A stretch of DNA of 64,000 nucleotides from Candidatus Versatilivorator sp. (GTDB lineage Bacteria; Acidobacteriota; Terriglobia; Versatilivoradales; Versatilivoraceae). The stretch is from positions 672,001 through 736,000 of the forward strand of contig OZ242296.1 in NCBI GenBank assembly GCA_965207735.1, in the 5' to 3' direction. Shown piece by piece: positions 2,484 through 62,100 of this stretch (the stretch's first letter is position 1; every line of letters starts with the position of its first letter). The notes below the pieces were generated by a model. That model did not search any database. It was given only the letters and a program-made list of their open reading frames with translations, and was not told the DNA's origin. A program made the position numbers and the translations under genes.

Positions 2484-3626
2484 ATGTTCAGCGAAATTTC
2501 GGGATTCATCAACTACCTTACGGTTGAAAAAGGACTTTCCAGAAACACCTTGGCCGCCTACAAGTCGGATTTGGCAAAGCTCCAGCAATTTCTGGAAAAG
2601 CGGAAACTCTCGTTGGCATCTTTGACTCCGAGCCAGCTGCAGGATTTTGTTCAGACACTTCAGCAGGACGCCGGCTCCGCTTCAAGAGTTCTGTCCGAGC
2701 TCCAGAAATATCTGAAGAAGCGGAAACTGTCTCCGGCATCTTTGACTCCGAGTCGGCTGCAGGATTTTGTTCAGACACTTCAGCAGGACGCCGGCTCCGC
2801 TTCAAGAGTTCTGTCCGAGCTCCAGAAATATCTGAACAAGCGGAAACTGTCTCTGGCATCTTTGACTCCGAGCCAGCGGCAGGAATTCATCCGGAAGCTT
2901 CAACTCGACGCCCGCTCCATTTCAAGAATTCTGTCGGCGGTTCGCGGCCTTTGCCGTTGGATGGTCCTGGAGGGAAGGCGAACCGAGGACCCGTCCGAGA
3001 ACCTGGAATTGCCGAAAGTCTGGAAAAGGCTGCCAGGGGTTCTGTCCTTGAAACAGGTGGAAGCCCTGCTGTCCCAGCCCGACCGAAAGAAGCCCCGCGG
3101 CCCCAGAGACAAGGACGTATTACTTAGAGACAAAGCCATGCTGGAAGTGCTCTACGCGACGGGTCTGCGTGTTTCGGAGCTGGTGTCTCTGGAAGTCAGG
3201 GACCTGCATAGCGATCGCGACCGGGGGTACCTGCACTGTCAGGGAAAGGGTGGAAAGGTGCGGGCCGTTCCCCTGGGCAACTCAGCCAAGGAGGCATTGG
3301 AGCAGTACATGGAGCACGCCCGGCAGAGTTTGCTCAAGGGGAAGGGTTCTTCCCTGATCTTTGTCACCAACCGAGGGCGGGGGATGACCCGCCAGGGGTT
3401 TTGGAAGATGATCCGGCGTTACGGAGAACTGGCGGGGATCCGGTCGTCTCTCAAGCCCCATGCCTTGCGCCATTCCTTTGCGACCCATCTCTTGCAGCGG
3501 GGGGCCGACCTGCGGGCGGTGCAGATGATGCTCGGTCACTCCGATCTCTCCACCACCCAGATCTATACCCATGTATTGAAAGAGCGCCTGAAAGGGATCT
3601 ACCGAGAGCACCACCCCAGGGCCTAG
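2484..3626 (+). CDS. xerD: Tyrosine recombinase XerD with an ~80-aa repeat expansion in the N-terminal domain
   Basis: VEKGLSRNTLAAY, LYATGLRVSEL, MTRQGFW, HALRHSFATHLL..GADLRAVQMMLGHSDLSTTQIYTHV, ending HHPRA. Confidence 0.92.
   Translation: MFSEISGFINYLTVEKGLSRNTLAAYKSDLAKLQQFLEKRKLSLASLTPSQLQDFVQTLQQDAGSASRVLSELQKYLKKRKLSPASLTPSRLQDFVQTLQQDAGSASRVLSELQKYLNKRKLSLASLTPSQRQEFIRKLQLDARSISRILSAVRGLCRWMVLEGRRTEDPSENLELPKVWKRLPGVLSLKQVEALLSQPDRKKPRGPRDKDVLLRDKAMLEVLYATGLRVSELVSLEVRDLHSDRDRGYLHCQGKGGKVRAVPLGNSAKEALEQYMEHARQSLLKGKGSSLIFVTNRGRGMTRQGFWKMIRRYGELAGIRSSLKPHALRHSFATHLLQRGADLRAVQMMLGHSDLSTTQIYTHVLKERLKGIYREHHPRA
2581..2940 (+). repeat. Three tandem 120-bp (40-aa) units inside xerD
   Basis: Units start TCCAG at 2581, 2701 and 2821. 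Units 1 and 2 are near-identical; the second half of unit 3 has diverged. Confidence 0.95.
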
Positions 3627-5206
3627 GAGTCTGCGCCGCAGGACGATTTCGGAAAGTTCAAGAGCGAGAGGCTACTGCGCAAGGCCGGTTCCAAGGAGTG
3701 CTTGGGAGCCGCTTGGGCGTTGATAGAGTCTCAAGAGCCCTGTGGGCTCCCACAATGGGCGGTTGAGGACCTCCGTGGTCCTGGGTATTGGGTGGAAATC
3801 CCTTGCTTCAGGCTGCCATCAGCGCACTCATCCTCTTGATGTTGAGGGCCAGACACACCAAGTCCCACTCCCCCTGCACTGACTGCAAGCCCCGCAGACT
3901 GAACCGTCGGAATCCCAGCCCCTCCTTGATCCACCCATGAGGGGCTTCGGCAATCCACTTCCTCCGCCGATACTCCACCTGACCGGCTAGGCTGGCCAGC
4001 TTCTTCCTCATACGACTCTTGGCCGGATGCTTCCTGGGATCGATCTCTACCGCCCGCTTCCCCTCGCGCCCCAGCGCAACATAACCGTCCACTCCTCTCT
4101 CTTCCAGGGCCTGCAAGTCCGCCTCATTGCAGTAGCCCGCATCCGCCAGCACCTGTTTCGGTATCTCCTGGAAGCTCTCCTCCACCTCCTCCAGCAACTC
4201 CATCATCTGCCCCTGATCGCTCGCCTGCGCCGTTACCTCGGTGGCCACAATGATCTGGTGCTCTCCGTCCACCGCCACCTGCGCGTTGTAGCATTGCTGG
4301 AACCCCTCGGTGGAAGTCTTCATGATCCGGCTTTCCGGATCGGTGAAATTACTCTGCGCCTTCTCCTCCGGTTCTCCGTAGGCCCGCTTGTAGGGCCGTC
4401 GTGCTTTCGGGTTGCGGTCCTGTCCCGGTTTGCGCCCCCGCTCCTCATCGGCCTCCCGCTGGGCCGCCTCCAGCCGCTGCTTGGCCGCCTCGATCGCCGC
4501 CAGCCGGTCCTCCCGCCGACGCAACTCCTCGGGCAACTCGTCCCCACGCCGGTCTTCCCCGTAGCGCTCATCTTCCTCCCGGTCCTCCCGCCGCGCCTGC
4601 TTCAACAACTCTTCGATCTCTTCCCTCAGTTGCCGCTCCCGCTCCCGCATCCGACCGTAGCTCATCGCCTTGCGCCGGCTCGCGTTCGCCCGCACCTTCG
4701 TCCCGTCGATCCCCAATCGCCCCAACCCCACCATCCCCATCTCCCGCGCCAAACGCACCACTTGCACCAACAGCCGCTTGAAGTCCTTCAAGTGCCGCCG
4801 GCGAAACTCGCACAGCGTCCGATGCTGCGGAAAGTTCCCCGCCGCCAGCATCCGAAACGCCACGTCCTCCTCCAGCTTCCTGGCAATCTTGCGCGACGAG
4901 AACACCCCCGTCGCATAGGCGTAGATCAATACCTTCACCATCATCCCCGGCTCATAGGGCGAGTTGCGCCTCCCGTCCTCTTCATACCGCCGGTAGAACG
5001 CTCCCAACTCCAGCCCATCCACCAACTCGCTCACCTGATGCGCCAAGTGTCCTTCCGGTACCCACTCCCGCAGGTCCGGCGGCAGCATCAACAACTGCTT
5101 CGGTTCATACGGGCGAAACCTCGTCCCCATTCACCACCTCCCATGATCTCTCTAAGCCCGTTATTCTATCATTCAGCCCTGCCTGGGTTTTCTGCGGCGC
5201 AGACTC
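3627..5206 (-). mobile_element. IS1182-family insertion sequence
   Basis: Perfect 15-bp TIR GAGTCTGCGCCGCAG (3627-3641; 5192-5206), flanked by CTAG direct repeats (3623-3626, 5207-5210). Confidence 0.9.
3808..5130 (-). CDS. IS1182-family DDE transposase
   Basis: LLMLPPDLREWVPEGHL, SSRKIAR, IDGTKVRANAS, SNFTDPESRIMK, YNAQVAVD, LADAGY. Confidence 0.92.
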   Translation of the reverse strand: MGTRFRPYEPKQLLMLPPDLREWVPEGHLAHQVSELVDGLELGAFYRRYEEDGRRNSPYEPGMMVKVLIYAYATGVFSSRKIARKLEEDVAFRMLAAGNFPQHRTLCEFRRRHLKDFKRLLVQVVRLAREMGMVGLGRLGIDGTKVRANASRRKAMSYGRMRERERQLREEIEELLKQARREDREEDERYGEDRRGDELPEELRRREDRLAAIEAAKQRLEAAQREADEERGRKPGQDRNPKARRPYKRAYGEPEEKAQSNFTDPESRIMKTSTEGFQQCYNAQVAVDGEHQIIVATEVTAQASDQGQMMELLEEVEESFQEIPKQVLADAGYCNEADLQALEERGVDGYVALGREGKRAVEIDPRKHPAKSRMRKKLASLAGQVEYRRRKWIAEAPHGWIKEGLGFRRFSLRGLQSVQGEWDLVCLALNIKRMSALMAA

Positions 5207-5210
5207 CTAG

Positions 5211-6209
5211 CCCGCATTTCTCAGTGCGCCATGGAAAGGCGCCTTCTTCCAACGGGTGCGAAACCCGTCCAACAACTGTCGCTCCGGTTGGTAGCAGCCA
5301 GGGCGGATCATGGAGGTAACGATATGGTCTGAAGCCCTCTGGTGTCAAAGGGCCGCTTAAGGCGGTTCAGCGAGCATGCGGGCCGGAACGCGAGTGAACG
5401 TCGAGCAGGCCTCGAAACGGGCAATGCGGGGGCCGACCCACCTGAGAAATGGGGAAGGCCGAAGACGGAGGGGGAAGCGAGCGACGCGGGCACCCCTTTG
5501 GACCCGCCGGGGTAGTGGCGCTGGCACGCATGGAAGGGGAAGAAGGCAGCAACATGGGAAGCCCTGTGGGTGGTGAGGCACGCACCGAACCGGAAGCTCG
5601 CGAGAGTCAGTCTAGGCCGACAGGGTGGCGGAGAGGCCTGTAGTACCGGAGAAGCCGGGTAATACCGGTGGAGGGAAGGGGCCTCAGGTGAGGAGCGGTG
5701 ACCGAAGGGGGAAGGGTCCCGGGAGTGGCGAAAGCCTGAAACCCCGACCAAAAAAGGGCCGGAGACTCCGGAAGCATCACATGCAAAAGTGAAAGGGTCG
5801 TCGGAGGAGGACGGCGTCGTCAGGGCATCAACAGGCCTGGCGGCAACCCGGGAGCGGAAGTGGATGGAGTGGGGGACGGGTGCCAATCCCATAGGAGTCG
5901 TCCACGGATGCGAGCGGGGACCTGTGTGCGAGACGCATGATCCCACTGGAGAGCCGAGATGCGGGAAAACCGCACGTCCGGTTCGGAGAGCGGGGACTGG
6001 AAACGTGATAAGGGAGCCGGACTGAGGCCCGAAGCGAAAGCGACGGAATAGCCACCGGACCCTATAGTCAACGCGCCAGTCCTCGACTCTACCCAAGGGG
6101 CATGCCCAGAGCTGTCTGTTACCCGCAAGCCCTTACCAGAGAGCCAATCAAAGTACTGAAGATAAACTACTTTTCGTCATGGCACCAGCGACCTGGCGAG
6201 AAATGCGGG
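5211..6209. mobile_element. ~130-bp MITE with IS1380-type ends, left TIR interrupted by a group II intron
   Basis: Left end CCCGCATTTCTCA (5211-5223) plus CC (6093-6094); right end GGCGAGAAATGCGGG (6195-6209); flanks CTAG/CTAA. Ends match the IS1380 at 18340 and the MITE at 50943. Confidence 0.82.
5224..6092 (+). ncRNA. ORF-less group II intron, copy 1 (869 nt)
   Basis: 5' GTGCG, 3' CTCTAC; domain V GAGCCGAGATGCGGGAAAACCGCACGTCCGGTTC at ~5951-5984. Homologous to the RT-bearing intron at 57657-59651. EBS2 ATGCGGG (5424-5430) and EBS1 TGAGAA (5443-5448) pair with the 5' exon. Confidence 0.92.
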
Positions 6210-17325: not shown

Positions 17326-18339
17326 TTATCGATTAAACCGTGACGATTGCCCTGCTTCCTCCAGGAAGGTGGCGGTGCGCAGGTAGTTTCCGTCGCTACG
17401 GATGGTGACGGCCCCCTGTCGGTCGGTGCGGAACAATTGCACGGGAAGTGTCTTCAAACGGCGAACCACCTCGGGGTGAGGATGGCCGAAGGGGTTGACC
17501 TTACCCGCCGAAATAACGGCAAGCACCGGATTGACCCGGTTCAGGAAGAGTAAGGAGGATGAGGTCCAGCTTCCATGGTGGGCTACCTTCAAGACATCGG
17601 CTTGGAGGCCACGTCCGAGGGCTGCCAGGCATTCCTCGACCGGCTCCTCGATATCACCGGTCAACAAGAAGGACCTGCGCCCGAAGGTCATTCTCAAAAC
17701 CAGGGAATCGTTGTTGAGATTTCCGTCGGAGGGGCCGCAACCCGGATTGAGAAATTCCAGTCCGGCCCCATGAACATTGAGCGTGTCCCCGGCTTGAAAA
17801 GCTCGGATCCTGAGGCCGCGTGCTTCCGCCTTTTTGAGCAGTGCGAGCAGATCGGGGGAAACGGGGCCGTTTCCAAGCCAGAATTCCTTGACCTCGAAGT
17901 TGTCCAGAATAAACCCCAGACCTCCCATATGGTCCTGGTGGGCATGGGTCAGGATCACCGCTTCCAGCGATCGGACGCCGCGGCTCCGGAGATAAGGCGC
18001 GACCACCTGCTCACCGACGTCAAAAGCGGACCCCACGATCTCGGATCGGTGGCCGGCCCCGGACCAACTGCCACCGCCATCGACCAGAGTGTGCCCGCCG
18101 TTCGGCCAGCCTACCAGGATGCTGTCTCCTTGCCGCACATCCAGAAACGTCAAACTCATCTCCTGCGATCCGGATTTGACCCCTTGTCCGCCTGAAAGCA
18201 GGACCGTCAGGGATGCCAGCCAGATGACGGCGCCGGACAGCCTCAGGAGGCGAGGGACTCTTGTGGCGACCCACAGGGCCAGGGAGCCGTAGTAGGCCAA
18301 CACCCAGGCCAGGGGAACCTGGGGCAGGGAAAAGCCTAG
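17326..18339 (-). pseudogene. comEC: comEC/Rec2 3' fragment (MBL domain), cut off by IS1380
   Basis: FLDVRQGDS, LTHAHQDHMGG, NNDSLV, LLTGDIE, KVAHHGS, NPFGHP. Rejoins the 5' part in frame. Confidence 0.9.
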
Positions 18340-18434
18340 CCCGCATTTCTCACCAGAGGTAGGAAGCATCGGTTCTCGGAATCTGGTAAAATACTCTTGT
18401 CTAAGGAGTTAACCAGATTCTTAAAGGAGAACCG

Positions 18435-19802
18435 ATGCCGACACAGTGTAACACCAAACCCCTGGAGTTTGAACCCCACGGCCGCCGCCGCGTGGTGGCT
18501 GATTTCGACGGCGGTCCCATCACTTCCGATGCCGGCTCCCTGCTGTTGCGCCGGGTGGATCGGGGCTTATCTCTCTCCGACCAGGTGGCCGACTGTTTCA
18601 CCGATCACCGCGACCCCAAGCGGACCCAATACAGCCTGCGCACCCTCATCGCTCAGCGCATCCGTGGCATCGCCCTCGGCTACGAGGATCTCATCGACCA
18701 CGACCAACTCCGTCACGATCCCCTCATGGCCTTGTTTTCAGAGAAAGGCCGTCGTGGCGACTCGCCTCCCCTGGCAGGCAAGAGCACCCTCAACCGACTC
18801 GAACACGCCCCCACCCAAGGCCCCACCCGCTACCACAAGATTGACCACGACCCCGAGGCCTTGCAAGCCCTCCTGGTGAAACTGTTTCTGCAAGCCCATC
18901 CCCAACCCCCCGATGAGATCATCCTCGACCTCGACGCCACTGACGATCCCCTCCACGGGGAACAAGAGGACCGCTTCTTCCACGGCTACTACCGAGGCTA
19001 CTGCTACCTGCCCCTCTACATCTTCTCGGGCCGCCATCTGCTCTCGGCCCTGCTCAGACCCGCCAACATCGATGCCTCCGCCGGCGCTCTGGAGCAGGTC
19101 CAGCGCATCGTCTCCCGCCTACGGCGTGTCTGGCCTCAGGTCAAGATCCTGCTGCGGGCCGACTCCGGCTTTGCCCGTGAGGAGCTGATGGGGTGGTGTG
19201 AGCAGCATCAGGTCGACTATCTCTTCGGCCTGGCCCGCAACTCCCGCCTCCAAGACGCCATCGCCCCCGAGTTGGCTCAGGCCCAGGCCCTCTCAGACCA
19301 GCAACAGCAGCCCGCCCGGATCTTCACCGACCTCTCCTACCGCACTCACAAGAGCTGGTCCCACGAGCGCCGCCTGGTCGCCAAAGCCGAGGTCCTGCCC
19401 CGCGGCCCCAACCCCCGCTTCGTCGTCACCTCTCTGTCGGTCCAGGACTACCCCGCCCAGTTCCTCTATGAGAAGATCTACTGTGCCCGCGGTGAGATGG
19501 AAAACCGCATCAAGGAGCAGCAACTCGACCTGTTTGCCGATCGCACCTCCACCCACTCCTTCCGGGCGAATCAGCTCCGGCTCCTGATGACCTCTTTCGC
19601 CTATGTGCTGGTGGAGGGCTTGCGCCGGCGGGCGCTGCAATCCACCTGCCTGGCCCGGGCCACCGTCGGTTCCATCAGACTCAAACTGCTCAAGATCGGC
19701 GCTCAGGTCACCATCTCGGTCCGTCGCATCAAGGTCGCCATGGCTTCCGGATGTCCTTACCAGAGGGAGTTCCGCATCGCTTGGGCTCACCTGCCGCCCT
19801 GA
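18435..19802 (+). CDS. IS1380-family transposase
   Basis: ADFDGGPITSDAG, LGYEDLIDHD.LRHDP, ILDLDATDDPLHGEQE, RADSGF, YCARGEMENRIKEQ; AAGGAG RBS. Confidence 0.95.
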   Translation: MPTQCNTKPLEFEPHGRRRVVADFDGGPITSDAGSLLLRRVDRGLSLSDQVADCFTDHRDPKRTQYSLRTLIAQRIRGIALGYEDLIDHDQLRHDPLMALFSEKGRRGDSPPLAGKSTLNRLEHAPTQGPTRYHKIDHDPEALQALLVKLFLQAHPQPPDEIILDLDATDDPLHGEQEDRFFHGYYRGYCYLPLYIFSGRHLLSALLRPANIDASAGALEQVQRIVSRLRRVWPQVKILLRADSGFAREELMGWCEQHQVDYLFGLARNSRLQDAIAPELAQAQALSDQQQQPARIFTDLSYRTHKSWSHERRLVAKAEVLPRGPNPRFVVTSLSVQDYPAQFLYEKIYCARGEMENRIKEQQLDLFADRTSTHSFRANQLRLLMTSFAYVLVEGLRRRALQSTCLARATVGSIRLKLLKIGAQVTISVRRIKVAMASGCPYQREFRIAWAHLPP

Positions 19803-20024
19803 GGTGCCCTGACCCGACCGTCACTCCTGGCCCTTGAAGACGCGGCCACCAGGCCCGATGGCAGAGGTGTCGCTGTTTTCGAGGGAAAATGCCGCCTGAG
19901 GTTCCTCGGAGAGCCTCAGAAGCCTCCGCTGTTGGCCTTTGCCTACCGATCCAGCCACCAACGTTGTTAAACTCGGCCTCAAATGCCTCCATGGCCCCTT
20001 TTACCGCTCCTGTGCGAACTCTGG

Positions 20025-20893
20025 GTAGAGTCGAGGACTGGCGCGTTGACTATAGGGTCCGGTGGCTATTCCGTCGCTTTCGCTTCGGGCCTCAGTCCGG
20101 CTCCCTTATCACGTTTCCAGTCCCCGCTCTCCGAACCGGACGTGCGGTTTTCCCGCATCTCGGCTCTCCAGTGGGATCATGCGTCTCGCACACAGGTCCC
20201 CGCTCGCATCCGTGGACGACTCCTATGGGATTGGCACCCGTCCCCCACTCCATCCACTTCCGCTCCCGGGTTGCCGCCAGGCCTGTTGATGCCCTGACGA
20301 CGCCGTCCTCCTCCGACGACCCTTTCACTTTTGCATGTGATGCTTCCGGAGTCTCCGGCCCTTTTTTGGTCGGGGTTTCAGGCTTTCGCCACTCCCGGGA
20401 CCCTTCCCCCTTCGGTCACCGCTCCTCACCTGAGGCCCCTTCCCTCCACCGGTATTACCCGGCTTCTCCGGTACTACAGGCCTCTCCGCCACCCTGTCGG
20501 CCTAGACTGACTCTCGCGAGCTTCCGGTTCGGTGCGTGCCTCACCACCCACAGGGCTTCCCATGTTGCTGCCTTCTTCCCCTTCCATGCGTGCCAGCGCC
20601 ACTACCCCGGCGGGTCCAAAGGGGTGCCCGCGTCGCTCGCTTCCCCCTCCGTCTTCGGCCTTCCCCATTTCTCAGGTGGGTCGGCCCCCGCATTGCCCGT
20701 TTCGAGGCCTGCTCGACGTTCACTCGCGTTCCGGCCCGCATGCTCGCTGAACCGCCTTAAGCGGCCCTTTGACACCAGAGGGCTTCAGACCATATCGTTA
20801 CCTCCATGATCCGCCCTGGCTGCTACCAACCGGAGCGACAGTTGTTGGACGGGTTTCGCACCCGTTGGAAGAAGGCGCCTTTCCATGGCGCAC
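20025..20893 (-). ncRNA. ORF-less group II intron, copy 2 (869 nt)
   Basis: Reverse complement of 5224-6092 with no differences seen; the shadow ORFs translate identically. Exon junction CCCGCATTTCTCA^CCAG. Confidence 0.92.
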
Positions 20894-20906
20894 TGAGAAA
20901 TGCGGG

Positions 20907-22509
20907 CTAGCCAGGGGATTGCGGAAAAAGCGCGGTTGAGGCTCAGAAGACCTTCAGCCAACAGGCCGGAGGTCCAACCGAGCAGCCAGGCGGTCTGCGG
21001 GGACAGACCGGCCCAGGCCAGATAGGAAAATCCCAAGGGTATGATCATGGCGACCAGGGGAATGACCAGCACATTGAGGAAGATCACGGGCAGCACCACC
21101 CGGTGGAAATAGACCGTTAGCGGAATCAGGAGCACCGCCTGAATGGCGATGGAAACCAGGAAAATATCCACAAGGCCCAAGGCGAGCTTGTAGGGCCAGG
21201 CAATCAGACCGAGGCGGATGGCCGGTCGAGTAATGCCCACAAACTCCCCCAATCTGGAGCCGCGGAGTCGCAAGCCAACCCGCCAGGCGGCCAGTCGGGG
21301 GGGGAAGTTGCGATCCAGATGGACGGATTCCAAAGACCCGAGAGCCTCCTTGTAAGGCTGAGTGGTGCGGCGCAGCAGAGGAAGGCCCATCGCGGCGATC
21401 GCCAGCGCGGCCGAGAAGGAGAGCTGGAACCCCGAGTCGTGCAGCCATCCGGGATTTTTCAGGAGAATCCACCAGGCCGCCAGGCACAAAGAGTGAAGCA
21501 GGTTGCGGTCCCGGTCGAAATAGAGAGCCGTCAGGAACAGACAACCCATGACCGAGGCTCGTTCAATGGCAACCTGTCCCTCGGCCACCAGGTTGTAAAG
21601 GGCGATCGCTCCCATGGTCAAGGTCAGGACCAACCAGCGTGGAAGCCCCAGTCGTTTGAGCAAGGCAAAGACCATGGCAATCATCATCCCGACATGCAGT
21701 CCCGAAACCACCAGTACGTGGTAGAGTCCGTTCAGTCGAAAACGGGACTCGGTTTCCTCCCCAAGGTCGCTGTCGTCTCCGAGCAGGACGGCTTTCAGAA
21801 CGGCCCTGGCCGGGTCGGATGCCGGAAGCGCATCCAGTGCACGAAAACAGCCTTGTCGCATGCGGTTGCCAAGAGCCTGCCAGGACCATTCCTCTTGCCG
21901 GGTGAGACAGGTCAGCAGGAGCGGATCCTTCAAATTTCCAGTCAGGAAGATGCCCCGAAGTTCCAGGTAGGACCGGTAGTCGAACTGCCCCGGATTGTTG
22001 AAATTCTCCGGTCTTCGAAGATAGGCAAGGAACTCGACCCGGTCGCCCGCCTGCGGGGGTGGCGAAGAGTCCAGAGCAATGTCCGGCGAGTTGAGGTGAA
22101 GCCGGATCTTTCCACGGGTCTCAAAGCCTGCGAACCGGTTTGCCAGGTGGTGGACTTCCACCTCCAGTCGGATGCCGTGGCCCTTTCCTTCCGAAACTCG
22201 AGCGCAAATTCCCCTCACCCGACAGGGAGCCGTCAGGTCAAGCGCATCGGATCGGACCAGGGTTCGAAGGTGGTTGGGATCGAACTGGAGTTGGTGGATG
22301 GATGTCCAGGCCAATCCCGACAGGCCAAAGGCCAGGAGCAGGACGATCCGGCAGCTCCAGTCTCTGTCCTTGACCCAGAGAATCCATGAGAGGCACAGCG
22401 CCAGAGCACCGGCAGCCCATAGGAATTCCGGGGAGCTGGTGACCTGGGCATGAGCGGCAACACCCAGGCAGAAAGCCACCGTCGGCAACAGAAGTGGAGT
22501 GTGCAACAT
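20907..22509 (-). pseudogene. comEC: comEC/Rec2 5' fragment (OB-like and competence domains)
   Basis: NPGQFDY, GLYHVLVVSGLHVG, GFQLSF. Removing the IS and one CTAG gives ...AIPW-LGFSLPQVP..., an 870-aa ORF. Confidence 0.9.
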
Positions 22510-49278: not shown

Positions 49279-49362
49279 GCCGCCTACGCGGCTCGACACC
49301 CATAGGCGACGTTTCCCTGGGCTGACGCCCACGGCTAAGTGCTGCCGCGGCTTCGCCGCTCT
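49279..49362. repeat. REP-like palindromic unit
   Basis: GCCGCCTACGCGGC..TGGGCTGACGCCCACGGCTA..GCCGCGGCTTCGCCGCTC; reverse-complement homologue at 62016-62100. Confidence 0.7.
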
Positions 49363-57656: not shown

Positions 57657-59651
57657 GTAGAGTCGAGGGGAGGCGCGCCGGCCTTAGATCGAGGGAGTCG
57701 CTGTTGCCGGCGGCTTTCGCCACTCGCCGGTGCCTCAATCTCGTTCCTCGCTGCGTTTCCTCGCCCCCGCTCGTCAAACCGGACGTGCGGTTTTCCCGCA
57801 TCCGGCTTTCAGTCAAGATCATGCCTTCGCCCTCGGAAGGCTCTGTGGCTTCGACCCCAGGCAAGTGAGTCCATAGGTTTTCCATAGTCTCTCGTCCGAG
57901 AAGCGCACACTCCCCCCGGTCCTCACCTTGTGCTTCCGACAGAGCCACTGACGCAGCCGCCCGCCCGCGTGGCGGTCGATCGCTCGGTAGGCCGGGCTCA
58001 CCTGCCCCAGAACGAAGTAGTTCGCCCACCCGGTCATCGCCCGGTTCAGGTGTTCTACCATCTGTCCTCGAAGCAGCGTCCCGTTCCTCGGCGCCGTCCA
58101 CTCGCTGATCTTGCGGCAGATGCTCTGGACGCTCGCCTGGCTGGGTCGTGTGCCGATGTAGGCTCCTTTCCCTTTGGGGCGATAGTTGCGTCCGATGCGA
58201 TATCCCAGAAACCCCATCGGTTCCTCCGGACACCGCAAGCATCGGGTCTTCCGCTCGTTGACCGGTAGCTTCAGCTCCTCCATGATCCGCTTGACCGCCG
58301 TCAGCATCTCTGCCGCCGGTGCCCTGCCGAGTACACGGAAGTCATCCGCATAGTTGACGATCTCCGCACAGAAGCGCCGGGCATATCCCAGCACCTTCCA
58401 GCCCAAAACGAAGCGCCGCATGTAGAGATTGCTGAGCAACGGTGAGATCGGGGCTCCTTGCGGTGTCCCCTTCCGCTCCCGGCGCCCTCGGTTCCGGCGG
58501 CGTCTGCCACCCTTCCCGTCGTCCTCCTCCACCGGCATCTCCAGCCATGCCTTGATGAGCTTGAGCATCCTCCCGTCACTCACGCGCCGGGCAATGCTTC
58601 GAATCAGCTCCGCATGCGGAATCTCGCCGAAGTAGTTGGACAGGTCGCCGTCAACCACCTCCTGGTAACCCCTTTGCAGGAGTTCATGCACGCGTTTGAC
58701 CGCGTCGTTGGCACTCCGCCCCCGCCGATAGCCATATTGCTCCGGTTGCAGGTCCGCTTCGAAGATCGGCTCCAACACCAGCAAAGCCGCCGTCTGCGCT
58801 ACCCGGTCCCGTATGCAGGGTATGCCCAAAGGCCGGAACTTGCCGGGCTGTTTCTTCGGGATCAGCACCTGCCGCACCGGCTTCGGTACGTAGGTTCCTT
58901 CCCTCAGGTCCCGCGCCAGTTCCCCCAGCCAGCCCTCCACCCCATACGCCTCGATGTCCTTGAAGCCCTCCCCGTCCACCCCGGCCGACCCGCCGTTTCG
59001 GCGTACCTGTGCCCAGGCTTCCTTCAGAAAGTCCTCTCGCCACACCTTGTCCGACAGCGCATGAAACCGCCGCTTGGGGTCCTCCTTCGCTTTCGCATGT
59101 AGCATGGTCTGGAATTTCCGAACCCCCTCTGACCCTGTTAGACTCTTGTCAGTGGCCACGCCTTGCCTCCTTTCCATGCTGCTCTCAACTCAGGGTCCCT
59201 TCCCTCCACCGGCGTTACCCGGCTTCTCCGGTACTACCGACCCATCCGCCACCCTGACGGCCCGGCCTGCCCCTCGCGGGGTCCCGGTTGATGTGTGCCG
59301 CATCTCCCCCAGGGCTTCCCGTGTTGCTGCCTTCTTCCCCTTCCATGCGTGCCAGCGTCACTACCCCGACGGAAGCGGATCGGTGCCCGCGTCGCTCTCT
59401 TCCCCATCCGCCAACGGCCTTCCCCTAAAGACAGGAGGGTCGGCTTCCGTATTGTCCGTTTCGAGGCCTGCTCGACGTTCACTCGCGTTCCGGCCCGCAT
59501 GCTCGCTGAGCCGCCCTTGGCGGCCCTTGACCCCAGAGTGCTTCAGACCATTTCGTTACCTCCATGATCCGCCCTGGCTGCTACCAACCGGAGCGACAGT
59601 TGTTGGGCGGGGTTCGCACCCGCCAGAAGAAGGCGCCTTTCCACGGCGCAC
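57657..59651 (-). mobile_element. Group II intron encoding an RT/maturase (1995 nt)
   Basis: 5' GTGCGCCGTGGAAAGGCGCC, 3' CTCGACTCTAC; domain V AAGCCGGATGCGGGAAAACCGCACGTCCGGTTT. Boundaries are fixed by the empty allele near 49510-49541. Confidence 0.93.
57819..59177 (-). CDS. ltrA: Group II intron reverse transcriptase/maturase, no endonuclease domain
   Basis: RPLGIPCIRDRVAQ, YGYR, DLSNYFG, GTPQGAPISPLLSNLY, YADD, FLGY, GWANYF; 452 aa; no HNH motif. Confidence 0.95.
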   Translation of the reverse strand: MERRQGVATDKSLTGSEGVRKFQTMLHAKAKEDPKRRFHALSDKVWREDFLKEAWAQVRRNGGSAGVDGEGFKDIEAYGVEGWLGELARDLREGTYVPKPVRQVLIPKKQPGKFRPLGIPCIRDRVAQTAALLVLEPIFEADLQPEQYGYRRGRSANDAVKRVHELLQRGYQEVVDGDLSNYFGEIPHAELIRSIARRVSDGRMLKLIKAWLEMPVEEDDGKGGRRRRNRGRRERKGTPQGAPISPLLSNLYMRRFVLGWKVLGYARRFCAEIVNYADDFRVLGRAPAAEMLTAVKRIMEELKLPVNERKTRCLRCPEEPMGFLGYRIGRNYRPKGKGAYIGTRPSQASVQSICRKISEWTAPRNGTLLRGQMVEHLNRAMTGWANYFVLGQVSPAYRAIDRHAGGRLRQWLCRKHKVRTGGSVRFSDERLWKTYGLTCLGSKPQSLPRAKA

Positions 59652-62015: not shown

Positions 62016-62100
62016 AGAGCGGCGAAGCCGCGGCAGCAGGTAGCCGTGGGCGTAAGCCCATGGAAAGCGTAGCGCAAGAGTCCGAGCCGCGTAGGCGGCG
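62016..62100. repeat. REP-like palindromic unit, inverse copy of 49279-49362
   Basis: GAGCGGCGAAGCCGCGGCAGCA..TAGCCGTGGGCGTAAGCCCA..GAGCCGCGTAGGCGGC. Confidence 0.7.

Follow-up and report, generated by a model that had tools for sequence, protein, structure and literature searches.

Two copies of an ORF-less group II intron lie in the 64-kb window, ie the whole stretch of DNA that was analysed: copy 1 at 5224-6092 (+) and copy 2 at 20025-20893 (-), the latter in sense with comEC. Both are 869 nt long and 100% identical, and their ends were set by the 28 copies in the genome. In both, Rfam models matched D1 (RF02003, 80.8 bits, cut-off 49; 5250-5393 in copy 1) and D5/6 (RF00029, 41.2 bits, cut-off 40; 5949-6092 in copy 1), and the termini, 5' GTGCG and 3' AC, fit the GUGYG and AY ends of group II introns. 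No RT ORF was found in either copy; the two ORFs of at least 100 aa that overlap the copies lack a Pfam match, and D4 holds only a short remnant resembling the N-terminus of an intron-encoded protein (IEP). Both copies are inserted at CCCGCATTTCTCA^CC, 13 nt inside an IS1380-type terminal inverted repeat (TIR), as the preliminary description of the locus had reported. D5 (5951-5984, +), assigned from sequence and fold, has an AGC triad, a GAAAA loop of five nucleotides and, compared to ORF-containing relatives, one extra A at 5957. This A is also present in the ORF-less copies of the related genomes G005 and G011 (those with a parsed D5) and absent from L012 and from the ORF-containing introns; it could reduce activity. 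D6 (5987-6092, +) is long, about 100 nt, with a bulged A at 6086 as the predicted branch point, and the fold of 5680-6092 gave a z of -2.7.

The host of copy 1 is a MITE of 130 bp net of the intron (5211-6209), taken from the table of paired TIRs, with IS1380-type TIRs and flanks of CTAG and CTAA. Copy 2 occupies the right TIR of an IS1380-family element (18340-20906, +; 1698 bp net of the intron) which has 19-bp TIRs, a CTAG duplication and a transposase at 18435-19802 (NF033539, 410 bits). This element splits comEC/rec2 (17326-22509, -) into two pieces, at 20907-22509 and 17326-18335, both matched by TIGR00361. With the IS1380 removed, the empty site reads as a single stop-free frame of 870 codons, and because comEC/rec2 is interrupted, DNA uptake has likely been lost in this strain. 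The proposal that new IS and MITE copies supply intergenic-like targets is borne out in part: the IS1380 or MITE end is a renewable target, but the IS1380 with copy 2 interrupts a gene. Elsewhere in the window there are two matches to the Acido-Lenti-1 RNA, at 49315-49360 and 62018-62063.

The genome (5.26 Mb) contains 28 copies of the ORF-less intron, 868-870 nt in length, of which 22 are identical. All 28 lie at CCCG(C/T)ATTTCTCA^CC, so that flanks unrelated to the TIR motif are not the rule. The 13-mer target occurs 157 times, compared to 0.14 expected by chance, and 152 sites carry the TIR motif of IS1380 and its MITEs, 29 of them occupied and 123 empty. Sixty paired elements were resolved, comprising 21 IS1380 copies, 35 MITEs of 242-254 bp (about 243) and four elements of 130-165 bp; an exact 4-bp duplication flanks 45 of the 60. 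One end is occupied in 25 of these pairs (24 by the ORF-less intron, one by an ORF-containing intron) and both ends in none. Seven of the 21 full IS1380 copies carry an intron, and occupied sites include both IS ends, both MITE ends and solo motifs. Where measured, the TIR is 19 bp in the IS and a perfect 18 bp in the MITE (one copy); since it is only 18-19 bp long, the intron splits it after base 13. The host IS has the NF033539 transposase, the 19-bp TIR and the 4-bp duplication of the IS1380 family, and from their common TIR motif and duplication the short elements appear to be its MITEs, presumably mobilised by the IS transposase.

Depths in run X19, which may be the source sample, were 222.9 for the intron, about 168 for IS1380 and 7.66 for single-copy sequence, corresponding to about 29 and 22 copies. 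Four metatranscriptome runs from four studies gave contigs on the intron, mostly 90-99% alike, with a summed depth above that of IS1380, although genes cannot be ranked by the depth of contigs. None of those contigs showed a joint that skips the intron, and empty TIRs would mimic such a joint. One TIR (C1:572757) carries GTGCG alone, a 5-nt intron scar that is likely a deletion product, and a 117-nt intron remnant with a family B/C-like start and an ORF-less end lies at 4260992-4261108; both are consistent with microhomology deletion.

Target recognition was analysed by covariation in 104 intron/target pairs representing 40 variants (38 after two mis-parsed variants were dropped), which fall into 17 classes by EBS1 core. 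The z values are inflated by relatedness, and both EBS2 registers were scored on the same rows. EBS1, UGAGAA[A] in the d3 loop (5443-5449, +), pairs with TTCTCA at -1 to -6 (-7) and gave a z of 8.6 over the 17 target classes. It is an unpaired loop in both the MFE and centroid folds, and its closing stem is 97% paired with one compensatory pair. The pairing first proposed for 5443-5448 thus stands.

The position of EBS2 required revision. It had been placed at AUGCGGG (5424-5430, +), complementary to -13 to -7 here, so that the two loops would cover exactly the outer 13 nt of the transposon. The 7-nt complementarity is real, but the segment is nearly invariant in the lineage and its register gave a z of 1.3 over the 40 variants and of 0.0 (p 0.55) over the 17 classes, compared to 4.4 (17 classes) for 5419-5422 with -14 to -11; the covarying pairing reaches beyond the 13 nt, so the loops do not cover exactly these. 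The revised EBS2, CGGGC (5418-5422, +), is predicted to pair with GCCCG at -14 to -10. It was the best window of a full scan and forms a variable column block in the alignment, with GGAU/ATCC, AUUU/AAAT, AGUU/AACT and CCGC/GCGG among the covarying EBS2/IBS2 examples. With C5418 counted, the duplex is 5 bp long, as stated for IIB1 and IIB2 introns (PMC8643678), and the corresponding IBS2 would run from the final base of the duplication through the first 4 nt of the TIR. Occupied and empty sites of this genome are not distinguished by base -14, so the pair at that position is not strict. In folds of domain I EBS1 lies in an open loop, as proposed. The segment 5424-5430 is partly stem in relatives, where its GCG (5426-5428) is base-paired to the strand following d3, in a helix that is 84% paired with one compensatory pair. 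The MFE fold of the whole of D1 was not significant (z -1.2) and buries part of both EBS2 candidates. A covariation scan for EBS3 gave nothing above invariant G columns, and enrichment of TA at -16/-15 was not significant (27/29 vs 95/123, p 0.07).

It is conceivable, if unlikely, that 5424-5430 paired with -13 to -7 is the EBS2 really used in the TIR-targeting ORF-less family, as a derived alternative to the ancestral pairing. All seven positions are complementary, the ancestral stem has a G-A mismatch here, and the GAA bulge reads GGG; moreover sequence can put EBS2 in the wrong place, and IIE and IIF introns can do without it for splicing (PMC3753933). Besides the missing covariation, this reading is opposed by the natural TIR targets, which are variable at -9 to -7 and constant at -13 to -10, and by the 53 parsed metagenome introns at the TIR site, only five of which form at least six of the seven pairs in that register. 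All 18 metagenome introns with GGGY at the revised EBS2 pair with RCCC, and in G011 a GGGU variant lies at ACCC in 5/5 copies, compared to 16/41 sites overall, which again argues for the revised position.

For the orientation test the replication origin was placed at dnaA. The lagging-template orientation was observed for 24 of the 28 copies (p 1.8e-4), or 22 of 28 when the origin was set at the GC-skew minimum instead. Among sites, 25/29 occupied ones are so oriented compared to 43/123 empty ones (p 5e-7). The bias persists within each MITE end (7/17 vs 0/31, and 11/19 vs 1/13) and is not significant at full IS1380 ends (3/11 vs 0/11; 2/11 vs 2/10). Four copies are oppositely oriented, including copy 2, which is close to a terminus of uncertain position. 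When compared to the replichores set from dnaA, GC skew is inverted at 3.8-4.5 Mb and reversed or flat at 2.8-3.1 Mb, suggesting recent inversions, possibly between repeats; inversions of this kind (3.8-4.5 Mb) blur the orientation calls. The lagging-template bias matches En-minus retrohoming of RmInt1 and RmInt2, for which the same bias has been reported (PMC4615759).

The differing flanks of the two window copies had been read as evidence of independent insertion. Outer flanks alone do not establish this, because a composite of intron and host could transpose, and the better evidence lies in the differing host elements and host ends. Passive spread, ie one or a few homing events followed by composite transposition of intron-bearing MITEs or IS, or by gene conversion between TIRs, has to explain why five kinds of host end are occupied, why 33 MITEs fall into 32 haplotypes with several occupied ones having empty nearest neighbours, why the strand bias holds within end types, and why intron variants (806C>A and 433C>T) each recur in different hosts. 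It is favoured by the outer 13 bp of the TIR being left intact, and transposases of the IS1380 family, for example that of ISEcp1, tolerate imperfect ends. One pair of occupied MITEs is identical, and the off-orientation copy 54570_b is two changes from 5074256_b. Occupied MITEs differ from each other by 7.3 differences, compared to 10.0 from empty MITEs, which fits some composite movement. Passive spread as the general explanation seems to us distinctly improbable, but some composite movement or conversion may have taken place besides homing.

The candidate helper, a 1996-nt intron at C1:5004992 that shares the EBS loops of the ORF-less intron, occupies the left TIR of a variant IS1380. Its ORF is intact and encodes a 452-aa protein with YADD and a TIGR04416 match, the same length as the family B IEP. 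Family B is represented in the window by an autonomous intron at 57657-59651 (-; 1995 nt), itself a possible helper, which encodes a 452-aa RT/maturase (57819-59177, YADD) and has a different EBS1 and target. The family B IEP contains RVT_1 and GIIM only, without an endonuclease; BLAST gave 13 copies of the family, and 11 of the 12 that were translated are intact. Its target is a purine-rich CACGAAG repeat, and that of family C (one ORF-containing intron, one ORF-less intron and one 117-nt remnant) is the centre of a palindromic repeat; both families differ from the TIR-type intron in EBS1 loop and repeat target. The closest IEP relatives come from Ca. Versatilivorator (Acidobacteriota). In G011 every full-length ORF-containing intron with a parsed D1 has a different EBS type, and the one of TIR type is truncated, so a helper need not share the target. 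G048 has ORF-less copies, and no close IEP was found there at E<1e-50. ORF-less introns are rare in bacteria, and a related IEP is almost always encoded in the same genome (PMC4424553); action in trans by a resident IEP is inferred here from the precedent of TeI3 (PMC2882425).

We consider it probable that this ORF-less group II intron, with its 28 near-identical copies at one position of the IS1380/MITE TIR, spreads by retrohoming with an RT borrowed from a co-resident autonomous relative. The original idea of a non-autonomous ribozyme exploiting IS1380 and MITE ends as a renewable target is supported by the 28/28 copies at the motif, the strand bias and the occupation of the same site in three congeneric genomes. 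Precursor RNA would arise by read-through transcription of flanking DNA, and a 452-aa RT/maturase without endonuclease would act on it in trans. The excised intron RNA would then reverse-splice into the single-stranded lagging-strand template at the fork, the target being read by EBS1 (-1 to -6) and EBS2 (-10 to -14, across the duplication/TIR junction), with protein contacts probably near the TA at -16/-15, and cDNA synthesis would be primed by the nascent lagging strand. Every jump of an IS1380 or MITE would yield two opposed targets, one of them on the favoured strand. That the intron is kept for a benefit to the host, the inactivation of IS1380 and MITE ends, a role proposed for RmInt1 and RmInt2 (PMC5894124) and in keeping with a TIR of 18-19 bp split after base 13, is very improbable, as only 29/152 sites and 7/21 full IS copies are hit, IS1380 is still high-copy, the sister introns target REP-like repeats instead, and selfish spread alone accounts for the data.

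The ORF-less introns are mosaics. In D5-6 those of four genomes (five with G011) are 97-99% identical to each other, compared to about 60% to ORF-containing introns, and across ORF-less copies from five other genomes conservation is 98-100% in D5-6 and 89-94% in D4. D1 is close to that of the co-resident ORF-containing intron of the same target type, with identities of 95.3% (TIR family here), 98.3% (C), 98.8% (G004) and 99.4% (G005), the G011 row being left out of this comparison. The D1 of the TIR-type ORF-less intron here is 97.7% identical to that of the G005 ORF-containing copy; G008 is an exception, its nearest D1 not being the co-resident one (96.8 vs 95.9). The switch point lies around D2/D3, and one ORF-less D3-D6 half occurs with three different D1 targeting halves. 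These alignments are most simply explained by recombination or conversion between co-resident introns, in either direction; the most likely course is that an older ORF-less D3-D6 half acquired its D1 by recombination with an autonomous intron that targets TIRs. At three other loci (L058, L053 and L157) the 5' exon is of one target type and the 3' exon of another, which suggests that intron copies have recombined. Related introns, 719-nt ORF-less units among them, stand in head-to-tail arrays at L110, L111, L119, L120, L122, L124 and L130 (Paracoccaceae).

A 5-nt D5 loop and a long D6 are class F or IIF traits (PMC3753933), and both are present (GAAAA; about 100 nt). The D1d hairpin whose tip would carry alpha-prime, as in class F, is present and 96% paired. 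The class F/IIF (g3) introns Ni.ha.I1 and Ni.ha.I2 share the 5-nt D5 loop, the long D6, the D1d terminal stem-loop and the lack of endonuclease (PMC3753933; PMC3552965). The N. hamburgensis plasmid 1 IEP, whose intron is in another target, is 45% identical to the helper and forms one clade with it (SH-aLRT 99) in a quick tree without bootstrap or labelled class C and E references. Both the structure and the IEP suggest class F in a broad sense, class F itself being an unsupported clade in PMC3552965. The available portions of the Ni.ha.I1/I2 accounts (PMC3753933; PMC3552965) state no TIR specialisation.

TIR-specific targeting had been thought undescribed, but RmInt2 of S. meliloti GR4 has been shown by experiment to home into the inverted repeats of ISRm17 (PMC4615759; PMC5894124). 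It too is an En-minus IIB-type intron found in both inverted repeats of an IS, with one target always on the lagging template (PMC4615759), and GR4 pSymA introns, presumably RmInt2, lie 12 nt after a CTAG. RmInt2 differs in being of class D, autonomous and present in 7 copies, whereas here IS1380 and MITEs are targeted and the expanding form is ORF-less. The helper is 34% identical to the presumed RmInt2 IEP and 32-34% identical to RmInt1/RmInt2 class D, compared to 72-87% among members. By analogy the intron appears to work like RmInt2, but by IEP sequence it is not a class D member. TeI3 of Thermosynechococcus elongatus provides a second parallel: its ORF-less copies outnumber ORF-containing ones, are mobilised in trans and form EBS-defined families, one of them at a fixed site in an IS (PMC2882425). 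TeI3 arose by deletion from a resident lineage, whereas here D5-6 is only about 60% identical to that of resident ORF-containing introns and the D1s resemble theirs; TeI4 IEPs have an endonuclease (PMC2882425) and the helper does not. In the excerpted text of the TeI3 account (PMC2882425) the term 'inverted repeat' does not occur, and excerpts of PMC8643678 and PMC12584367 mention neither inverted repeats nor class F. In the full-text literature, whose coverage leaves out most subscription journals, no published account of introns in IS1380 TIRs or of D1 swapping was found. IS-end homing (RmInt2) and ORF-less proliferation (TeI3) are already known; the new elements are a class F-like lineage whose RTs diverge (46-86% identity) while the IS1380 position used stays the same, and a single ORF-less D3-D6 half combined with three D1 targeting halves.

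A search of 61 genomes gave an intron match in 32. The occupied junction, in exactly this form, is present 11 times in G005, 7 in G009 and 13 in G011, all of the same genus; it is absent from G004 and G008, both of which have empty TIRs and ORF-less introns of target type B. ORF-containing relatives lie at the same TIR position beside an IS1380 transposase in two Gemmatimonadota records. A metagenome scan for a TIR followed by an intron start gave 117 loci (about 390 estimated), on mostly short contigs, with an RT match in 34 and an IS1380 transposase match in 11; Rfam D1 was found in 9 of 19 loci tested. Twenty-four other TIR-associated RTs are 46-86% identical to the helper and form two sister clades, one of which includes the N. 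hamburgensis IEP, in a tree whose RTs were sampled by target pattern, so that IS1380 targeting may reflect either ancestry or convergence. In the second RT clade the EBS2 position reads GUGAAG, which does not pair with the TIR.

An IS1182-family element (3626-5207, -; transposase 3808-5130, NF033551, 388 bits) lies in the CTAG immediately outside the occupied TIR of copy 1. Genome-wide, 10 ends of the 13 IS1182 copies abut a TIR motif at CTAG, nine of the ten via the left end, and only 89/1718 CTAG sites precede a TIR. At lagging-template sites the intron is present in 7/8 IS1182-adjacent TIRs compared to 18/60 others (p 0.003), and IS1182 next to a TIR was seen once in G011 too (L047). IS1182 aims at the same ends as the intron. 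A sigma-70-like site (10/12, a consensus match only) lies inside the intron at 5348-5319 (-), directed out of its 5' end toward the IS1182 transposase; no outward promoter was found in the IS1182 end.

A broader picture, in which we place about even confidence, is that a persistent protein-less D3-D6 chassis captures the D1 of a co-resident autonomous intron, its most successful form reading the junction of duplication and TIR made by IS1380 transposition. It would be a parasite of a parasite of a parasite, in a class F-like lineage for which IS1380 ends, where IS1182 also inserts, would be an old cross-phylum niche. The findings show the IS-end strategy, known from one rhizobial intron, to be a widespread niche, reached by introns with RTs only about 46% identical. 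The EBS variants form a natural set from which EBS2 is placed in a little-studied intron class, one where its part in homing is undecided (PMC3753933). The D1 swap suggests retargeting through recombination, as well as a compact ribozyme able, perhaps, to use several RTs, and the intron-bearing TIRs offer a direct test of movement by an IS with a split TIR.

TIRs are not supported as the general target of the lineage, since a partner inverted repeat was found for 15/25 UGAG-type sites but for only 9/62 others (flanks of up to 2.4 kb). For two targets found at L084, L086 and L102, namely type D (TARCCCATCTTTAAC) and one more, a partner inverted repeat lies at a distance of about 2.1-2.3 kb and the duplications match, and these two targets may be the TIRs of other IS.
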